Below are positions 5,809-38,302 of a stretch of 38,716 bases of DNA, in pieces. The stretch lies in NCBI GenBank assembly GCA_030592285.1, contig JAUVJU010000003.1, positions 1 to 38,716 of the forward strand. Direction: 5' to 3'. The DNA is from a candidate division WOR-3 bacterium (GTDB lineage Bacteria > Hydrothermota > 32-111). The number at the start of each line of letters is the position of its first letter. Within the stretch, counting starts at the first letter, position 1. Below the pieces are notes generated by a model that saw nothing but the letters and a program-made list of their open reading frames with translations, searched no databases and had not been told where the DNA came from. The position numbers and the translations under genes are program-made.

Positions 5809-6855
5809 ATGGCAAATAAGGAAGACAAAGAAGTTCTGGAAATTCTGGAATTATGTAAATCGCTTGATGAGAAATCATATATCATATATAATGGGTTTTC
5901 AACGCTTTTCAAAAACGAAAGATCAGCACCGTTTTGGGATGAAATGGCAACATATAAACATGATCATATAAAGTCATGGGATACATTAATTGAATTATCA
6001 AAATTGAATATTATTCCCCAAATATATGAAAACCCCAATGAAGTAAAAAAGAATCTGATTAATATAAGAGAACGCATAGAAGATCTTTTACCAGAATCTA
6101 TTAATATTAATGATGATAGAGCATTTATTATTGCATGTAGATTAGAGTTTTATTTAATTCACCCTGCACTAGAATCATTAATGGGTTATATTAAGAACAT
6201 TCCATTTGAAGGGCTTGCAATGCTAAGCTATGAAAAACATATTGATGATTTTTTTAATGGCATTGAGTCATTTTCACATTATTCTCCGGAATTGCAATTA
6301 TTGTCAGAAGTTATAAAGGTATTATGGCAGAAAAATAAACATTTAGCAAAACAAAGCAGCAATGACACGCTAACAGGAATATTTAATAGAAGGGGCTTTG
6401 TTAATGCAATTACACCATTAACAATGTCTGCAATGGCAAGAAGGCAGAAAACAGGAATAATGATGCTTGATGTTGATAATTTTAAGAATATAAATGATCT
6501 GTTTGGACATAGTTATGGAGATAGGGTTTTGATGTTTATAGCTGATATTATAAGAAAATCCATTCGCACATTTGATGTAGTTGCAAGATATGGAGGAGAT
6601 GAATTTGTTGTTTTCATATCTCCATGTGAAGAGGAATTAATTTATGATATGGCGGATAATATAAGACAAACAATTAATTCTACAAGCGAAAAGGGAAAAA
6701 AGGTCACAATAAGCATTGGAGTAGAATGCAGGAAGGTAGAAGACAGTCCACGTATTCATATAGATGATTCTATAAAAGTTGCTGATAAATATCTTTATGT
6801 TGCCAAAAACAATGGTAAAAACAAGGTTATTTCTATCAATCATTTACCAAAATAA
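5809..6855 (+). CDS. Diguanylate cyclase (GGDEF) with a helical, possibly ferritin-like, N-terminal domain
   Basis: DTLTGIFNRR, DVDNFK, intact GGDEF with an RxxD I-site (RTFD). Start at 5809 preferred because the -10 box overlaps ATG 5800. Confidence 0.88.
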   Translation: MANKEDKEVLEILELCKSLDEKSYIIYNGFSTLFKNERSAPFWDEMATYKHDHIKSWDTLIELSKLNIIPQIYENPNEVKKNLINIRERIEDLLPESININDDRAFIIACRLEFYLIHPALESLMGYIKNIPFEGLAMLSYEKHIDDFFNGIESFSHYSPELQLLSEVIKVLWQKNKHLAKQSSNDTLTGIFNRRGFVNAITPLTMSAMARRQKTGIMMLDVDNFKNINDLFGHSYGDRVLMFIADIIRKSIRTFDVVARYGGDEFVVFISPCEEELIYDMADNIRQTINSTSEKGKKVTISIGVECRKVEDSPRIHIDDSIKVADKYLYVAKNNGKNKVISINHLPK

Positions 6856-34314: not shown

Positions 34315-35187
34315 ATGATAAACATTCAATTACTTAAAAACATACAAAGAATCACCATAACAGCTCTTTTTGCGGACGATGAATTGATGAATCAATTGGT
34401 TCTAAAAGGGGGAAGTGCCATAAGTTTAATCTATGGTTTATCGAATAGAGCTTCTGTTGATTTGGATTTTTCAATGGAATTAGATTTTGACCAATTATAT
34501 TTAGATCAAATCGAAAATAAAATTGAGATGCTTTTGAAAAAAGAGTTTAAAAGGAACAATTATACAATCTTTGATTTTAAATTTGATGCAAAACCTAAAA
34601 ACAACAATGATCCAAATTGGGGTGGCTATAAAATTGAATTTAAATTGATTGAAACAGATAAATATAATGAAAATAATTTAAATAAAGCAAGGCGTGAATC
34701 AATACCCCTTGATGATGAGTTTCATAAGAAATTTACTATTGATATTAGTAAATATGAATATACTCATGAAAAAACAGAGAAGGAAATTGATGGATATATA
34801 ATTTATGTTTATACAATAGATTTAATTATTATTGAAAAAATCCGTGCAATTTGTCAGCAAAATCCTGAATATAAAAAAATAATCAAATCTGCTACTACAA
34901 GACCAAGATCAAAGGATTTTTATGATATTTATATATTACTAAAGGACAAAAATTCAGGTGAATTTATTGATAAAATCAAAGATACTATAAAAATTGTATT
35001 CAAACAGAAGAAGGTACCATTGGAATACTTGATGCAGATAAGTAACCAAAAGAATATACATAAAGCAGACTTTGCATCATTGCGGGACACTTTACCTGTT
35101 AAAGAAAAACTGGAAGAATTTAATGTATATTTTGCATTTATTGTAGAATTGTGCAGAAATATTTATAAATCAATATTTCCAGGATAA
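34315..35187 (+). CDS. AbiEii/AbiGii-family nucleotidyltransferase (type IV TA toxin-like)
   Basis: LVLKGGSAI, RASVDLDFS, EKIRA, RSKDFYDIY. Confidence 0.88.
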   Translation: MINIQLLKNIQRITITALFADDELMNQLVLKGGSAISLIYGLSNRASVDLDFSMELDFDQLYLDQIENKIEMLLKKEFKRNNYTIFDFKFDAKPKNNNDPNWGGYKIEFKLIETDKYNENNLNKARRESIPLDDEFHKKFTIDISKYEYTHEKTEKEIDGYIIYVYTIDLIIIEKIRAICQQNPEYKKIIKSATTRPRSKDFYDIYILLKDKNSGEFIDKIKDTIKIVFKQKKVPLEYLMQISNQKNIHKADFASLRDTLPVKEKLEEFNVYFAFIVELCRNIYKSIFPG

Positions 35188-36047
35188 TAAACATTCCATT
35201 CCTTATCAAATTTTAGATTTGATAATTTGTGACCAAGATAAAATTTTATTTTAAATGGATTTTTCTTTAATAAGGATAATTGCTGATTTGAATAAACACC
35301 GGATTTTGATAAATAAAAACCGATTGATTGAATATATGGATAAACGAAATCCATCTGTTTAAGATATGCCTGAATCCTATTAAGAGAAATTTTTCCTTTT
35401 ACATTATAATATGCATTCAGAACTTCAGAAATTCCACCAGCATATTCGGGTCTTACTGCTATGTCAATTAAGGTTCTTTCAATATCAGTAATAGAAATTG
35501 ATTCATCATCAAAATTTATTGATATAACCCCTAAATTGTTATGGTTTTTACCATTGAGAATGCAAACTCTATAATTATTCATTTTACAGATATTGTTTGA
35601 TAAACGCTGTGGTCTTAAGAATGCCATATCCACCTTCTCTTGTGATAAAATAGCATTATTAGGGGATCTGGGTTTTGGTGATTGTTCAATATTCAAATAA
35701 TATGTTTTTGGTATTTGATCTGTCAAATTGTGTATAAACATAGCAGAATAATGAGAAAAGTATGAATTTGGTTTTATTGATAAAAGAGTTTTATTCAAAG
35801 AGCCATCTCTCCAAATATAGAGAGATTTGCTGAAAGAGGGGAATTGGAATTTAAGAGACTTAAGAAAAGTATTTTCTTCAAGTAAAGAAATGAATTTTTT
35901 TGTACTAGTATTTTGTGGCAATCTCCAAAAATCAATATTGTTTGAAAGGATTTCGGATATATCTGAATAAGAAAAGACATTATTTTCTAATGAATCAAAT
36001 AATTTAATAATATCCTTTTTGGCTATTTGAAATCTTGTTTGTTTCAC
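35163..36047 (-). CDS. AbiEi-family antitoxin/transcriptional regulator-like protein
   Basis: YFSHYSAMFIHNLTDQIP, ITDIERTLIDIAVRPEYAGG, IGFYL, WNVY. GTG start at 36047 with AGGAG SD; the longer ORF-track start runs through the promoter. Confidence 0.8.
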   Translation of the reverse strand: MKQTRFQIAKKDIIKLFDSLENNVFSYSDISEILSNNIDFWRLPQNTSTKKFISLLEENTFLKSLKFQFPSFSKSLYIWRDGSLNKTLLSIKPNSYFSHYSAMFIHNLTDQIPKTYYLNIEQSPKPRSPNNAILSQEKVDMAFLRPQRLSNNICKMNNYRVCILNGKNHNNLGVISINFDDESISITDIERTLIDIAVRPEYAGGISEVLNAYYNVKGKISLNRIQAYLKQMDFVYPYIQSIGFYLSKSGVYSNQQLSLLKKNPFKIKFYLGHKLSNLKFDKEWNVYYPGNIDL

Positions 36048-36093
36048 AAATTCTCCTAATAAAATCCAAATACTATATATATCTCCTTGAATA

Positions 36094-36121
36094 ATAATAA
36101 CATAAATAAATAATTTGTCAA
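36094..36121 (-). promoter_or_regulatory. Sigma70 promoter of the abiEi-like gene
   Basis: Minus strand TTGACA-16-TATTAT with TGn extension. Confidence 0.65.
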
Positions 36122-36123
36122 TA

Positions 36124-36374
36124 GTTATCCTCATTAGTATATATACTAATGAGGAAATAACCATATAGTATTAAAGAATACATAAGTTGATATAAATGGA
36201 AACTTATAAGGGATATCAACAAAAATACATATTATATTATATAGTATATATACTATATAATACAATGTATATTTTCCATATTTATACATATAAGTTACTT
36301 TTATATTGGAACTTATATATGTTTTTAATGCAAATTAGGTTATGATATATAGTATACATACTATATATCATGAC
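36124..36374. repeat. Array of alternating palindromes at about 108-bp period
   Basis: Type A, core TAGTATA(T/C)ATACTA: 36128-36155, 36235-36262, 36342-36371. Type B, ATAAGTT-N12/13-AACTTAT: 36182-36207, 36290-36316. Confidence 0.85.
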
Positions 36375-36526
36375 TCATGTAGCAAACAATTATATATATG
36401 TAAATTTATTAATTACAGAATAAATTAAATACTAAGAACAAATATCAGTTATTAATCAAGAAAACAACGAAAAAGTTGATGATAATAATAGACAAATGGC
36501 ATAAAAAGTGCTATAATAGCGGACTT

Positions 36527-38302
36527 ATGAAAGAAAATATTAAAAAACTGAACATTTTAAAAAGCTTAAAAAGATTATTTCCATATATGATGGGATATAA
36601 ATTGCTTTTTATAAGTGGTTTTTTGGCAATGATATTTATTTCCATAGCACAACTTTTAGACCCATTGATTTTAGCACATATTATTGATGTATCAGTACCC
36701 AATAAAGATATTGCGGATATGGTAAGATATGGAATATTCTTTGTATTAGTGATCATGGTTACAGGTGTTATGTCAAATTTCCAAACAATACTGCTTGCAC
36801 GACTGGGAGTTAAAATAATTATTGATCTAAAAAGACAGGTTTTTGAACATATACTTAAATTACCCGTTTCATATTTTGATGAAAACCCTGTAGGAAAATT
36901 AATTGCACGAGTTGAAAGTGATTGTGAAAAAGTAAAACAACTATTTTCTCAATTCTCAATCATGGTATTTGGCAGCATTTTATTTTTTATTGGAATGATA
37001 GCAGTATTATTCTGGAAAAATTGGCAAATCACTTTTTTTCTTATCATTCCATTACCATTTGTATTTGTACTTATAATGTTCGCAATAAGATATCTTGCTA
37101 CTTATTATAGAAAAATAAGACATTTATATGCCGAATTATCGGGTCTGCTTGCAGAATATATACAGGGAACCCATATTGTACAGATATTCAATAAACGAAA
37201 GATTGTTGAAAATATTATTAATAAAAAGAGCAAAGAAAAGAAAAAGCAGGAAACAAAAGCTGCTTTTTATGAATATTCATTTTGGAGTATTTATTCCTTT
37301 CTTATTGAAACAATGTTTATTGTTCTTGTGATCTTACTTACTACACCAAAAATATTTGCGGGCTTAATGACCTTGGGAACATTGATTGTATTTATTCAAT
37401 ATGGAAGAAGAATGTTTGAACCAATTATTATGATCTCAGAAACATTTAATATGATTCAAAGGGCATTTGTTTCATTGGAGCGCATATTCAGTATTCTTGA
37501 TCTGGAAACAGAAAAAAACAATGAAAAAGGGATTGTTCCAATATTCAATAAAAGTATTAGATTTGATAATGTATGGTTTAAATACAAGAAAGACGAATGG
37601 GTATTAAAAGATATTAATTTTGAAATAAAGAAAGGTGAAAAAATTGCCTTTGTAGGTGCTTCCGGCAGTGGCAAAACAACTACTGTATCACTTTTAGAGC
37701 GATTTTATGCTGTTGATAAGGGTAGTATAACTGTTGACAGTAATAATATAAATGATTTTCCATTACAACAGTGGAGAAAAATGATAGGGCTTGTTTTGCA
37801 GGATATTTATCTATTCCCCGGTAATATTATTGAAAATGTAAGAATTTATAATAATGATATTAATAAAGAACAGGTTGAAAAGGCATTAAAAGCAGTTGAG
37901 GCAGATAATTTTATTTCTAAGAAAAAACATGGCATTGATATGGAACTTAATGAAAGAGGACAAAATATATCTGTTGGTGAAAAGCAATTACTAAGTTTTG
38001 CCAGAGCATTAGTTATTTCTCCTGAAATAGTAATAATGGACGAGGCAACATCATCTGTTGATGCACAGACAGAAAAAAAGATTCAAAAGGTAATGGATAA
38101 GATTTTAAAGAATAAAACAGCAATTATAGTTGCACATAGATTATCATCCGTTGTTAATGCGGACAAGATACTATTGTTTTCAAATGGAAAGATAATTGCA
38201 AGAGGAAAACATTCGGAATTGATGAAAACATCTAAGGAATATCAGAAACTTGTTGAATTACAATTTCTATCAGTTAAGGGAGACAGCAATGCATCACATT
38301 AA
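36527..38302 (+). CDS. ABC exporter TMD-NBD subunit (second pair, MdlB-like)
   Basis: GKLIARVESD, GASGSGKT, ISVGEKQ, MDEAT, AHRL. Start ATG 36527 follows TAGACA-17-TATAAT. Confidence 0.92.
   Translation: MKENIKKLNILKSLKRLFPYMMGYKLLFISGFLAMIFISIAQLLDPLILAHIIDVSVPNKDIADMVRYGIFFVLVIMVTGVMSNFQTILLARLGVKIIIDLKRQVFEHILKLPVSYFDENPVGKLIARVESDCEKVKQLFSQFSIMVFGSILFFIGMIAVLFWKNWQITFFLIIPLPFVFVLIMFAIRYLATYYRKIRHLYAELSGLLAEYIQGTHIVQIFNKRKIVENIINKKSKEKKKQETKAAFYEYSFWSIYSFLIETMFIVLVILLTTPKIFAGLMTLGTLIVFIQYGRRMFEPIIMISETFNMIQRAFVSLERIFSILDLETEKNNEKGIVPIFNKSIRFDNVWFKYKKDEWVLKDINFEIKKGEKIAFVGASGSGKTTTVSLLERFYAVDKGSITVDSNNINDFPLQQWRKMIGLVLQDIYLFPGNIIENVRIYNNDINKEQVEKALKAVEADNFISKKKHGIDMELNERGQNISVGEKQLLSFARALVISPEIVIMDEATSSVDAQTEKKIQKVMDKILKNKTAIIVAHRLSSVVNADKILLFSNGKIIARGKHSELMKTSKEYQKLVELQFLSVKGDSNASH

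Follow-up and report, generated by a model that had tools for sequence, protein, structure and literature searches.

How is a toxin–antitoxin gene pair controlled when its two genes do not share an operon? The question arises in a stretch of 38,716 nucleotides from a candidate division WOR-3 bacterium (contig JAUVJU010000003.1), called the window here, in which an abiEi-like gene faces its putative toxin partner and is preceded by three long palindromes (A1–A3) with shorter inverted repeats (B1 and B2) between them. The original prediction offered two readings of this arrangement: a phased two-motif operator with an A-B-A-B-A design, or a processed non-coding RNA array like those of type III toxin–antitoxin systems. 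We find that the A palindromes are most likely binding sites through which AbiEi controls its own gene. They are probably the operators of a large, uncharacterised AbiE subfamily with convergent abiEi and abiEii genes, forming a phased multi-site array for AbiEi autoregulation.

The gene pair and the palindromes in the window

The antitoxin-like protein matched the PADLOC model of AbiEi (3.8e-27 over residues 10–285) and no Pfam family at E <= 0.01. Its AlphaFold2 model (mean pLDDT 91.7) gave four Foldseek matches at E <= 0.001, all of them chains of S. agalactiae AbiEi (6y8q) and Rv2827c (1zel). The top matches had E values of 1.7e-8 for 6y8q, at 14% identity in the Foldseek alignment, and 1.1e-6 for 1zel, with a TM score of 0.58–0.60. 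The neighbouring protein matched PADLOC AbiEii (1.6e-21) and the Pfam family AbiEii (PF08843, DUF1814; 2.1e-24, 87.2 bits against a cut-off of 22.5). An AbiEi-like protein beside a DUF1814 (AbiEii) nucleotidyltransferase marks the pair as a putative AbiE module, in which AbiEii would be toxic, AbiEi would neutralise it and the pair would confer phage resistance. Its genes are convergent, in contrast to the AbiE module described in PMC3985639, a bicistronic operon in which the regulator gene precedes the nucleotidyltransferase gene on the same strand. The same genome holds a second AbiE-like pair, which is co-directional, has another inverted repeat and lacks an A-type palindrome.

Table 1. Features of the gene pair and its upstream array (positions in the window).
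Feature	Position	Strand	Description
abiEii nucleotidyltransferase toxin-like gene	34315..35187	+	Convergent with abiEi, 25-bp 3' overlap; no palindrome upstream
abiEi-like gene, 294 aa	35163..36047	-	GTG start 5 nt after AGGAG; PADLOC, AlphaFold2, Foldseek
Half-site	36070..36080	-	Matches one arm of A2/A3; within predicted abiEi 5' UTR
Predicted abiEi promoter	36094..36121	-	TTGACA 36121-36116, 16-nt spacer, TG-extended TATTAT ending at 36094
A1	36128..36155	.	Perfect 28-bp palindrome, core TAGTATATATACTA, arms TCCTCAT/ATGAGGA; centre 36141/2
Decayed large dyad centred on A2	36156..36341	.	A1-A2 spacer resembles reverse complement of A2-A3 spacer
B1	36182..36207	.	ATAAGTT-N12-AACTTAT; centre 0.5 bp off A1-A2 midpoint; mirror copy of B2
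A2	36235..36262	.	Perfect 28-bp palindrome, core as in A1; centre 36248/9
B2	36290..36316	.	ATAAGTT-N13-AACTTAT; centre 0.5 bp off A2-A3 midpoint
A3	36342..36371	.	30-bp palindrome, one central mismatch, core TAGTATACATACTA; centre 36356/7

The three A palindromes read as they had been described, two perfect 28-mers and a 30-mer with a mismatch, with centre-to-centre distances of 107 and 108 bp; extended outwards, A2 has arms of 30 nt at 90% complementarity. The array begins just upstream of the -35 element, again as described, with A1 lying 6 bp from TTGACA on the minus strand. In the window, the pattern TAGTATAYATACTA at up to one mismatch gave 6 strand-matches, which are the three sites (shuffle mean 0.02; at least 6 in 0 of 100 shuffles). 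Across the whole genome (G000; 2,141,478 bases) it matched only at the places of A1–A3, and its backwards control gave 0 matches. Shuffled controls had been named in advance as a way to unseat the array, and the counts observed for the A and the B pattern were each matched in 0 of 100 shuffles.

The reported half-site at 36071 is also present. Its 10-mer TATATAGTAT occurs 43 times in the genome, both strands counted, 5 of them in the array region; the half-site itself may be what is left of an operator close to the start. Neither the window nor L005, the closest homologue among the fetched loci, has a full site over the predicted -10 element or transcription start, and their promoter architecture is the same.

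Recurrence, symmetry and phasing of the sites across the subfamily

The subfamily comprises 1756 proteins at E <= 1e-5, and our sample consisted of 160 loci from many phyla that encode AbiEi-like proteins 40–54% identical; these loci are evolutionarily related, so the counts that follow are not independent. Palindromes of 28–30 bp were present in 2–4 copies upstream of abiEi at 107 of the 121 unique loci that had at least 500 nt of upstream sequence, the window and L005 included (no site at 8 loci, one at 6, two at 49, three at 50 and four at 8). The core GTATNNATAC was present at 340 sites, spread over 135 of the 152 unique upstream regions. A homologue in G006, 66% identical, has two A-type palindromes ~111 bp apart beside a TTGACA promoter, and its upstream neighbour differs from that of the window. 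Upstream of homologues, where the original prediction had placed its first check, both the motif and a preferred spacing of ~110 bp recur across phyla. Gene order recurs as well: an abiEii homologue adjoined abiEi tail-to-tail on the opposite strand in 141 of the 160 loci, and also in L005, and on the same strand in none. The other 19 loci gave no AbiEii match, and 12 of these had less than 900 nt of downstream sequence.

The sites keep to a single flank of the module. Within 600 nt upstream of abiEi there were 326 sites in 77 kb (4.2 per kb), against 5 in 214 kb further upstream and 0 in ~467 kb of the remaining compartments of 150 loci, namely both coding sequences, the 600 nt upstream of abiEii and the sequence beyond abiEii. 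The toxin promoter showed no operators, and only 6 of 120 loci had a perfect inverted repeat of 8 bp or more within the 200 nt in front of abiEii. At 78 loci the proximal site lay within 55 nt of the start codon, a distance that is approximate since start codons were set from tblastn alignments, and many of these loci show TTGACA-N17-TATAAT with TATAAT inside the left arm. In the 25 loci with TTGAC 26–40 nt upstream of the site centre, the site straddles the predicted -10 element and start; their arms are 94% complementary and 18 of the 25 are fully paired.

This distribution disposes of two further candidates. Dispersed repeats of the REP kind also measure 20–40 bp and have variable complementary stems, but are described in PMC3733652 as high-copy and scattered; A sites occupy a single locus in the 2.14 Mb of G000, upstream of abiEi, and none fell in the ~467 kb of other compartments. 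Ends of a site-specific recombination cassette were rejected on the absence of sites upstream of abiEii and beyond it.

The centre of the sites, GTATATATAC, is invariant across the family. Around it, Watson–Crick symmetry of the arms stood at 93–96% at positions 6–14 from the centre and then fell to 71% at position 15, 45% at position 16 and ~30% by positions 23–25. The claim of outer arms that differ yet stay complementary thus extends from the window to the whole family, out to position 14. All four pair types were present at positions 11–13, and mirror positions shared 0.78–1.64 bits of mutual information, compared with at most 0.17 bits after a shift of one position. Arms were hardly more alike within a locus (0.49) than between loci (0.42). 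The innermost positions are symmetric too (position 2 in 100% of sites, position 1 in 84%). Among 237 palindromes collected at a 12-bp threshold, arms measured 12–13 bp in 5, 14 bp in 44 and 15 bp in 71, followed by a tail, and some sites are perfect palindromes with arms of 27–44 bp. Mismatches at positions 6–14 comprised 36 GT/TG, 35 AC/CA and 104 others, with no excess of G:U. Compensatory change could be followed in only 8 orthologous site pairs, which gave 5 double compensatory and 4 single-side changes where 1.1 doubles were expected; the doubles represent about three events, and the statistical power is low.

Spacings in the family ranged from 47 to 303 bp with a peak at 109–113 bp, and the two distances in the window are at the low margin of this peak. 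A periodogram of 191 spacings peaked at 10.5 bp (R 0.281), and 0 of 500 jittered sets reached as high. The phasing was no weaker in a set reduced to 94 representatives at 70% protein identity: R was 0.39 at 10.6 bp (0 of 300 as high), and 31 of 119 spacings fell within 107–113 bp.

The B sites and a decayed inverted duplication

Both B sites lie between the A sites as claimed, and two matches in the window exceed the 0.01 expected (at least 2 in 0 of 100 shuffles). In G000 the B pattern occurs as the window's two copies only; its backwards control gave 10 forward matches, which indicates that similar 7-bp inverted repeats are a frequent feature of this AT-rich genome. The loops of the B sites had been called variable. 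B1, however, resembles the reverse complement of B2, loop included, and the same holds for the spacers around them: the A1–A2 spacer matched the A2–A3 spacer at z 4.3 when inverted (0 of 1000 shuffles as high) and at z 2.0 when read directly (34 of 1000), and a second spacer comparison, the one run on 69 site triples, gave z 5.5 against 2.5 for the window. Since inverted similarity exceeds direct similarity, the loops are better described as mirrored. When the window array is folded as single-stranded DNA (z -6.9), B2 pairs with B1 around A2.

The ~108-bp repeat units of the original prediction fared worse. Tandem Repeats Finder reported no such period, its only rows being at 5, 9, 21 and 9 bp, and together with the orientation of the spacers, which match better inverted, this rules out a direct tandem repeat. 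Ungapped identity between units was 0.34 (1 against 2) and 0.53 (2 against 3). Recent duplication as a general origin of the arrays was also rejected: among the 69 triples, neighbouring spacers exceeded z 3 directly in 1 and inverted in 6.

The spacers compared were those of L005 and the family loci, a set without the closest relatives, P0001 (94% identity), P0003 and P0004 (63% and 62%). B-like hairpins at the midpoint are absent from L005. Of 39 family spacers of 104–116 bp, 19 contained no inverted repeat of at least 6 bp, and the best inverted repeat lay within 1 bp of the midpoint only in the window's A3–A2 spacer (offset -0.5) and in L037; in the window's A2–A1 spacer the best one was 8 bp off the midpoint. 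A general second motif was rejected on these grounds. The B sites belong to an inverted duplication around A2 that is local and not family-wide. Of the proposed two-motif operator, the phased A sites stand, across phyla, and the A-B-A-B-A design falls away, its B elements being local mirror copies within a decayed dyad.

Candidate functions and comparison with known systems

How might the A sites work? PMC3985639 and PMC7319586 describe AbiEi and Rv2827c as autoregulators, each of which binds inverted repeats within its own promoter; S. agalactiae AbiEi is established to bind cooperatively, to bend DNA and to regulate its own expression negatively. Such binding is the precedent to which the original prediction had appealed. 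By analogy, we infer that two AbiEi winged-helix domains bind each 28–30-bp palindrome on duplex DNA. They would read the invariant centre (GTATA in one half, TATAC in the other), with weaker preferences out to position 10 and for T/A at position 14. The 2–4 helically phased sites, with their mode near 111 bp, would cooperate by DNA looping or wrapping, and AbiEi would repress its own promoter; the toxin gene would have a separate promoter without operators. The window and L005 would represent a variant in which A1 sits just upstream of the -35 element and only a half-site is left in the 5' UTR. Centred ~54 bp from the predicted start of abiEi transcription, on its upstream side, A1 occupies a place where an activator, or occlusion of an UP element, is more usual than simple repression, which tells against the model.

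Base-specific reading cannot explain mirror symmetry at positions without a preferred base, so this model needs a second process. We attribute the symmetry of the arms to a hairpin-mediated process at the level of DNA, either template-switch correction between the arms or selection for extrudability, and the central perfect palindrome would seed either one.

It is possible, though we think it unlikely, that the extruded DNA is itself the functional form, a cruciform or hairpin, with AbiEi or some other factor recognising the structure of its conserved tip, the invariant centre. Such an array would register supercoiling or the presence of single strands, as during phage infection or DNA transfer, for instance. 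Several observations agree with it: the arms co-vary as a stem would, there is a hard minimum arm length, the centre is an alternating TA run, the single-stranded fold of the window array is strong, and G:T mismatches are as rare as A:C ones, in keeping with a need for pairing on both strands. The perfect arms of 27–44 bp at some sites further imply that hairpins do form at these centres. However, spacing phased centre to centre to the B-DNA repeat argues for proteins meeting on duplex DNA, and positions 1 and 2 could not pair in a hairpin and are nevertheless symmetric. Stems of 14 bp extrude poorly at physiological supercoiling. One arm of a palindrome can also be corrected against the other by template switching, which could give equal covariation without any function of the extruded form. 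We hold it just as doubtful that these modules, in many phyla, use the array of cruciform-forming palindromes as a sensor of DNA topology or single strands, read by the AbiEi winged helix. Changes in supercoiling, or single-stranded DNA entering during infection, would then be coupled to antitoxin supply and so to release of the convergently transcribed toxin, and the covarying arms would offer a rare example of a bacterial operator selected for the secondary structure of its DNA.

The link from AbiEi to the sites is drawn from sequence, which leaves some room for another binder (a host regulator, AbiEii or a nucleoid protein), or for a role in mobility or recombination of the module rather than in transcription. 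In L015 the array is duplicated on either side of a tyrosine-recombinase gene fragment, and the sites accompany the module from phylum to phylum, which is how the components of a mobile cassette would behave. We nonetheless regard this group of explanations as improbable. A recombination cassette needs both ends, and the sites are one-sided, with none in ~207 kb beyond abiEii. A host factor is unlikely to be common to many phyla, many loci have their proximal site on the predicted core promoter of abiEi, and the AbiEi winged helix is the only conserved DNA-binding domain nearby.

That the array encodes RNA hairpins, as a processed non-coding RNA or a third component like type III antitoxin repeats, seems very improbable, even though each palindrome would fold as a strong hairpin from either strand, the covariation resembles that of an RNA stem and AbiEii-family enzymes are described as acting on RNA 3' ends. 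Wobble pairs are not favoured, and a hairpin loop needs no perfectly symmetric centre. Distal sites lie upstream of the abiEi promoter, and where the proximal site straddles the predicted start, as in the 25 loci above, the abiEi mRNA would hold one arm only, yet the arms are complementary; both the lack of a G:U excess and this placement argue for DNA. A search against Rfam gave no match near threshold (three matches at E 2–8.8, the two best at 18.6 and 18.4 bits where the gathering scores are 80 and 70), and 35950–36600 contains no terminator-like site. The type III ToxI element, as presented in PMC3985639, shares a repeated, structured-looking element beside an abortive-infection-type toxin–antitoxin pair, but is transcribed, consists of direct tandem repeats and precedes an endoribonuclease toxin; the units of the A array are not direct repeats (direct spacer similarity in 1 of 69 triples), they stand upstream of the antitoxin promoter, their toxin belongs to the nucleotidyltransferases and nothing speaks for RNA pairing.

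We return to the preferred reading, operators bound by AbiEi, and to the known AbiEi operators, whose layout is unlike that of the A array. S. agalactiae AbiE shares the two-domain AbiEi (winged helix and C-terminal domain), the DUF1814 AbiEii partner and inverted repeats in the abiEi promoter region. Its operator, PabiE, has one pair of 23-bp repeats 3 bp apart that overlap the promoter of the bicistronic abiEi-abiEii operon, with the best-conserved 11 bp at the outer ends and 27 bp between them. In the present family it is the centre that is conserved, the arms abut and are variable yet complementary, 2–4 copies stand ~110 bp apart in helical phase and the convergent toxin gene lacks an operator. 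M. tuberculosis Rv2827c is similar in length (293–295 against 294 aa) and, as noted above, in fold, and more than one repeat pair is bound, so that several antitoxin molecules occupy a promoter (PMC7319586). The Prv2827c operator of that report consists of four 23-bp repeats within 131 bp, with gaps of 13 and 4 bp and negative cooperativity, in front of an operon, and differs from the separate 28–30-bp palindromes seen here, which stand 60–190 bp apart with covarying arms and helical phasing. In both known operators each 23-bp repeat is described as bound by one AbiEi monomer, and neither pairing of 23-bp repeats, 3 or 13 bp apart, describes sites with arms of 14–15 bp and no gap.

In spacing, the arrays resemble the operators of looping repressors of E. 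coli. The gal and lac systems have auxiliary operators ~90–115 bp away; they share with the A arrays several dyad-symmetric operators ~100 bp apart at distances that follow the helical repeat and, in many loci here, one site on the core promoter with the others upstream. The proteins are unrelated to the gal and lac repressors and we know of no protein oligomer that bridges A sites, nor, to our knowledge, do gal and lac operators show covariation of unread positions.

Toxin–antitoxin systems of the AbiE/MenAT nucleotidyltransferase type, which are widespread, act in defence and stress. To judge from PMC3985639 and PMC7319586, work on their regulation has covered two examples, both operonic. 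The present subfamily is marked by convergent toxin and antitoxin genes, operators at the antitoxin promoter only, a helically phased array and stem-like covarying arms. It therefore offers a system for asking how a toxin:antitoxin ratio is set without an operon, whether AbiEi loops or wraps DNA, and how DNA hairpin formation, through selection or template-switch correction, shapes bacterial operators. Arms that are mirror-symmetric but variable are unusual for operator sites; Supplementary Figure S8 of PMC3985639, on the repeats in front of other abiE loci, may be relevant to how far the covariation is out of the ordinary. A partial literature search, without supplements, found no description of the core motif, the operator array or convergent abiEi-abiEii genes.

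Viral contigs, among the matches listed, contributed 81 core matches in 80 loci, with arms of 7–11 bp in 70 and of 12 bp or more in 11. In these 80 loci tblastn (E <= 1e-3) found neither an AbiEi nor an AbiEii homologue, and we treated the matches as chance or unrelated. The open reading frames around two of them (L176 and L200) matched no query that was run and look, by eye, like ordinary phage genes. In the family itself, the invariant 10-bp core provides a simple annotation marker for the subfamily. Many family sites also carry GTAG adjoining the core.

Palindromes at the abiEi promoter

All three core-sharing palindromes upstream of the antitoxin-like gene abiEi (A1–A3) are present with the positions, lengths and spacings of the original prediction, their centres lying 107 and 108 bp apart. 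Their core, TAGTATAYATACTA, matches at these three sites, giving six strand-matches where 0.02 are expected; none of 100 shuffles, the control proposed at the outset, reached six. The 2,141,478-base genome has no other match. The intergenic region holding the array spans 479 bp and has a G+C content of 20% (genome, 30%); no terminator-like site was found within 35950–36600. A strong abiEi promoter (TTGACA, 16 nt, TG-extended TATTAT; 11 of 12 matches) is predicted 6 bp from A1.

Features of the abiEi locus; A1–A3 were read from the sequence of 35700–36900
Feature	Position	Strand	Description
abiEii	34315–35187	plus	toxin-like nucleotidyltransferase gene; PF08843 at 2.1e-24; convergent with abiEi
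abiEi	35163–36047	minus	GTG start, 5 nt after AGGAG
Predicted abiEi 5′ UTR	36048–36093	minus	two Shine-Dalgarno-like runs, AAGGAG and AGGAG, ~30 nt apart
Half-site	36070–36080	minus	one-arm match
A1	36128–36155		perfect 28-mer
B1	36182–36207		inverted repeat ATAAGTT-N12/13-AACTTAT; unique in genome
A2	36235–36262		perfect 28-mer
B2	36290–36316		inverted repeat of the same pattern; unique in genome
A3	36342–36371		30-mer, single central mismatch
ABC-transporter promoter-like site	36489–36529		strong; TAGACA, 17 nt, TG-extended TATAAT ending 36517
ABC-transporter gene	36527–38302	plus	other flank of array

The 3′ ends of abiEi and abiEii overlap by 25 bp. A Pfam search of the minus-strand AbiEi-like protein matched no family, and its best match to the PADLOC AbiEi models was at 3.8e-27. 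Its AlphaFold2 model (mean pLDDT 91.7) retrieved from the PDB with Foldseek, at E ≤ 0.001, only the Streptococcus agalactiae AbiEi (6y8q) and Mycobacterium tuberculosis Rv2827c (1zel, TM 0.58–0.60). On the basis of the PADLOC and Foldseek matches, the modelled protein is a two-domain AbiEi.

Among 60 related genomes, one (G006) carries a close abiEi homologue, of 66% identity, whose ATG stands at the position of the GTG in the window. It has the same promoter (TTGACA-16-TG-TATAAT), and directly upstream of this lie two palindromes with the same core, their centres ~111 bp apart; one shares all 28 bp with A2. The next upstream gene differs from the ABC transporter of the window, so the A sites go with abiEi and not with the transporter. 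The predicted 5′ UTR of the G006 locus has a single Shine-Dalgarno-like run and lacks the ~30 nt separating the two runs of the window, the stretch within which the half-site falls. On the other flank, the predicted TATAAT of the ABC-transporter gene ends 10 nt before the ATG at 36527; if this site is the promoter, the mRNA would be leaderless or nearly so.

Symmetry, position and spacing across the family

The AbiEi-like family of ~290-aa proteins yielded 1756 matches at E ≤ 1e-5 among 2699 candidates. With a locus search built on an alignment of 22 members, we took the 80 top-ranking loci each from genome contigs (drawn from 545 of 589 confirmed stretches) and from metagenome contigs (576 of 597). 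Their proteins are 40–54% identical to the window AbiEi, and their record titles name many phyla. Start codons were placed from tblastn alignments. With the window and the G006 locus, the upstream set (up to 600 nt before abiEi) comprised 162 loci, 152 of them unique.

Run with a minimum arm length of 12 bp, a generic palindrome finder returned 237 palindromes, all with one common centre. To avoid selecting on symmetry, we then took every occurrence of GTATNNATAC, which gave 340 sites in 135 of the 152 unique loci; the examination of homologous upstream regions suggested originally thus recovered the motif, and the A-site finding is genuine and broader than could be known from the window. Watson-Crick symmetry is 93–96% at distances of 6–14 from the centre, 71% at 15, 45% at 16 and about 30% at 23–25. 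Mirror positions at distances 6–14 share 0.78–1.64 bits of mutual information; offsetting one side by a single position leaves 0.17 bits or less. Each of the four base pairs is frequent at positions 11–13 (at position 12, AT 76, TA 121, GC 50 and CG 78). The description of the arms as co-varying was therefore correct and applies to the family at large. Arm lengths extend up to 44 bp and cluster sharply at 14 and 15 bp, with 44 and 71 palindromes respectively. Arms are barely more alike between sites within a locus (0.49) than between loci (0.42), which rules out base-by-base reading by one protein.

The sites are confined to one side of the gene pair. In 150 unique loci, the 600 nt preceding abiEi contain 326 sites, a density of 4.2 per kb. 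Five more, all at 687–820 nt, turned up in 214 kb lying further upstream, and ~467 kb made up of the two coding sequences, the 600 nt preceding abiEii and the sequence beyond had none. Perfect inverted repeats of 8 bp or longer occur in the 200 nt before abiEii in just 6 of 120 loci. Where 500 nt or more of upstream sequence was available (121 loci), site counts were zero (8 loci), one (6), two (49), three (50) and four (8). In 78 loci, no more than 55 nt separate the start codon from the centre of the proximal site, and in many of these a promoter-like TTGACA-N17-TATAAT has its −10 hexamer inside the left arm, mirrored by the right arm. A site overlapping the −10 is in the classical position of a repressor operator. 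The window and the G006 locus depart from the layout common in the family: the centre of A1 precedes the predicted start by ~54 bp, the site itself standing just upstream of the −35, and past the start only the half-site is left, making the mode of repression less obvious in these two.

The 191 centre-to-centre distances span 47–303 bp. Their mode, at 109–113 bp, is sharp, and 37 fall within 107–113 bp; the spacings in the window are at the lower edge of this mode. A periodogram over periods of 8–14 bp peaked at 10.5 bp (R 0.281, phase 6.0); after jittering by ±8 bp, no set out of 500 attained this R. The family loci are related to each other, and thinning to one locus per 70% protein identity (94 loci, 119 spacings) left the signals no weaker: R rose to 0.39 at 10.6 bp (0 of 300 jittered sets), and 31 of the 119 spacings fell within 107–113 bp. 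The ~110-bp spacers of different loci are mostly unrelated in sequence, so it seems to be the distance itself that is conserved.

Three further observations concern palindromes with the family core. Perfect palindromes of 88, 60 and 54 bp surround it in L100, L026 and L108 (centres at −175, −103 and −110 from the start codon) and look as if grown outward from the centre. L015 has two copies of its two-palindrome promoter region, flanking what by eye resembles a tyrosine-recombinase C-terminal fragment ~1 kb upstream of abiEi. Two viral contigs among the matches listed (L176, ~6235–6262; L184, ~1769–1796) share, between phage genes, the same 28-bp palindrome, which combines the family core with G+C-rich arms and T...A ends; a tblastn search of the fetched stretches detected no homologue of AbiEi or AbiEii.

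Duplex operator, hairpin or RNA

Helical phasing is the signature of proteins that contact each other from separate positions by bending or looping duplex DNA. We favour reading the A sites as duplex DNA, given that the spacing is phased in B-DNA register and the centre is symmetric (position 2, 100%; position 1, 84%). The proposal of a phased operator, possibly a cruciform, holds for the phasing, with the cruciform as the less probable form. The paired arm positions have a hard minimum of 14, which together with the long perfect extensions indicates that hairpins matter in some way. Arm covariation needs a second cause, either selection for hairpin or cruciform formation or correction of one arm against the other by template switching, a mutational process at quasi-palindromes; both candidates are compatible with the evidence.

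Several results speak against the array as an RNA element, the other half of the original prediction. Mismatches at positions 6–14 are wobble-type for the sense strand in 36 cases and for the antisense strand in 35, while 104, more than either, are of other kinds. A hairpin loop needs no central symmetry, and the promoter lies downstream of the distal sites. Where TTGAC stands 26–40 nt before the site centre (25 loci), the predicted start lies near the centre, so the abiEi transcript would hold one arm only; yet there positions 6–14 are 94% complementary and 18 of the 25 sites fully paired. Nothing in Rfam came near its gathering score on the array. Sequencing runs listed for the stretch include none recorded as RNA, which weighs on neither side.

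A two-motif A/B design fares no better, as B-like midpoint hairpins are absent from the G006 locus and not general in the family, and B1 and B2 fall within an inverted repeat around A2. The A1–A2 spacer matches the reverse complement of the A2–A3 spacer (score 21, z 4.3, 0 of 1000 shuffles) far better than the same spacer read directly (score 4, z 2.0, 34 of 1000), and a separate comparison gave z 5.5 against 2.5. The B loops also match in the inverted alignment, the centre of each B site deviates by at most 0.5 bp from the midpoint of its flanking A pair, and in a single-strand fold B2 pairs with B1 around A2. From the inverted likeness, the A-B-A-B-A of the window is a long inverted repeat that has decayed, with A2 at its centre, in agreement with family sites grown to perfect palindromes with arms of 27–44 bp; neighbouring spacers are similar when inverted in 6 of 69 triples and when direct in 1 of 69. 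This excludes a tandem array; Tandem Repeats Finder reported no ~108-bp period there, and the units compared directly are barely similar outside the motifs. A backwards control of the B pattern had 10 forward genome matches, so such short inverted repeats are cheap at 30% G+C. A local role for B, such as a bend at a loop apex, is possible, the one pointer being that both copies keep all 14 stem positions amid diverged surroundings.

Proposed operator model and convergent gene order

The whole case is one of sequence comparison, with promoters and transcription starts predicted. Within it, the comparisons establish a conserved, locus-specific, DNA-level and helically phased palindrome set at the abiEi promoter of a convergent pair, with none at the toxin gene. 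Experiments on two other AbiEi proteins showed that their winged helix binds inverted repeats in their own promoters and that they repress (PMC3985639, PMC7319586). By this precedent, each palindrome would be bound on duplex DNA by two AbiEi subunits, and the sites would cooperate through looping or wrapping, so that the antitoxin would tightly repress its own expression. The toxin would be transcribed separately, perhaps coupled to abiEi only via the overlapping 3′ ends, which could link the two transcripts. The A sites are best filed as an AbiEi operator variant of a convergent AbiE subfamily.

Published AbiE systems are bicistronic with the regulator gene first, as far as they are described in PMC3985639. 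Whereas AbiE/MenAT systems in these accounts are bicistronic, the pairs in the window and family are convergent, tail to tail. An AbiEii homologue lies directly downstream on the opposite strand in 141 of the 160 family loci and in the G006 locus, at a median alignment gap of 10 nt (≤40 nt in 137 of 141), and no same-strand pair occurs among these loci. The other 19 loci lack an AbiEii match at E ≤ 1e-5: 12 have less than 900 nt downstream, and seven (L009, L034, L090, L123, L143, L150 and L154) have at least 1.5 kb, so that their abiEi-like genes may be orphans or differently partnered. A second AbiE-like pair in the genome of the window, on another contig (C154; 577–2253 of L006), is co-directional, a 279-aa AbiEi-like gene preceding a 277-aa AbiEii gene (PF08843, 9e-39). 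No A-type palindrome lies upstream of it; a different, 10-bp inverted repeat is found there at ~55–75 nt.
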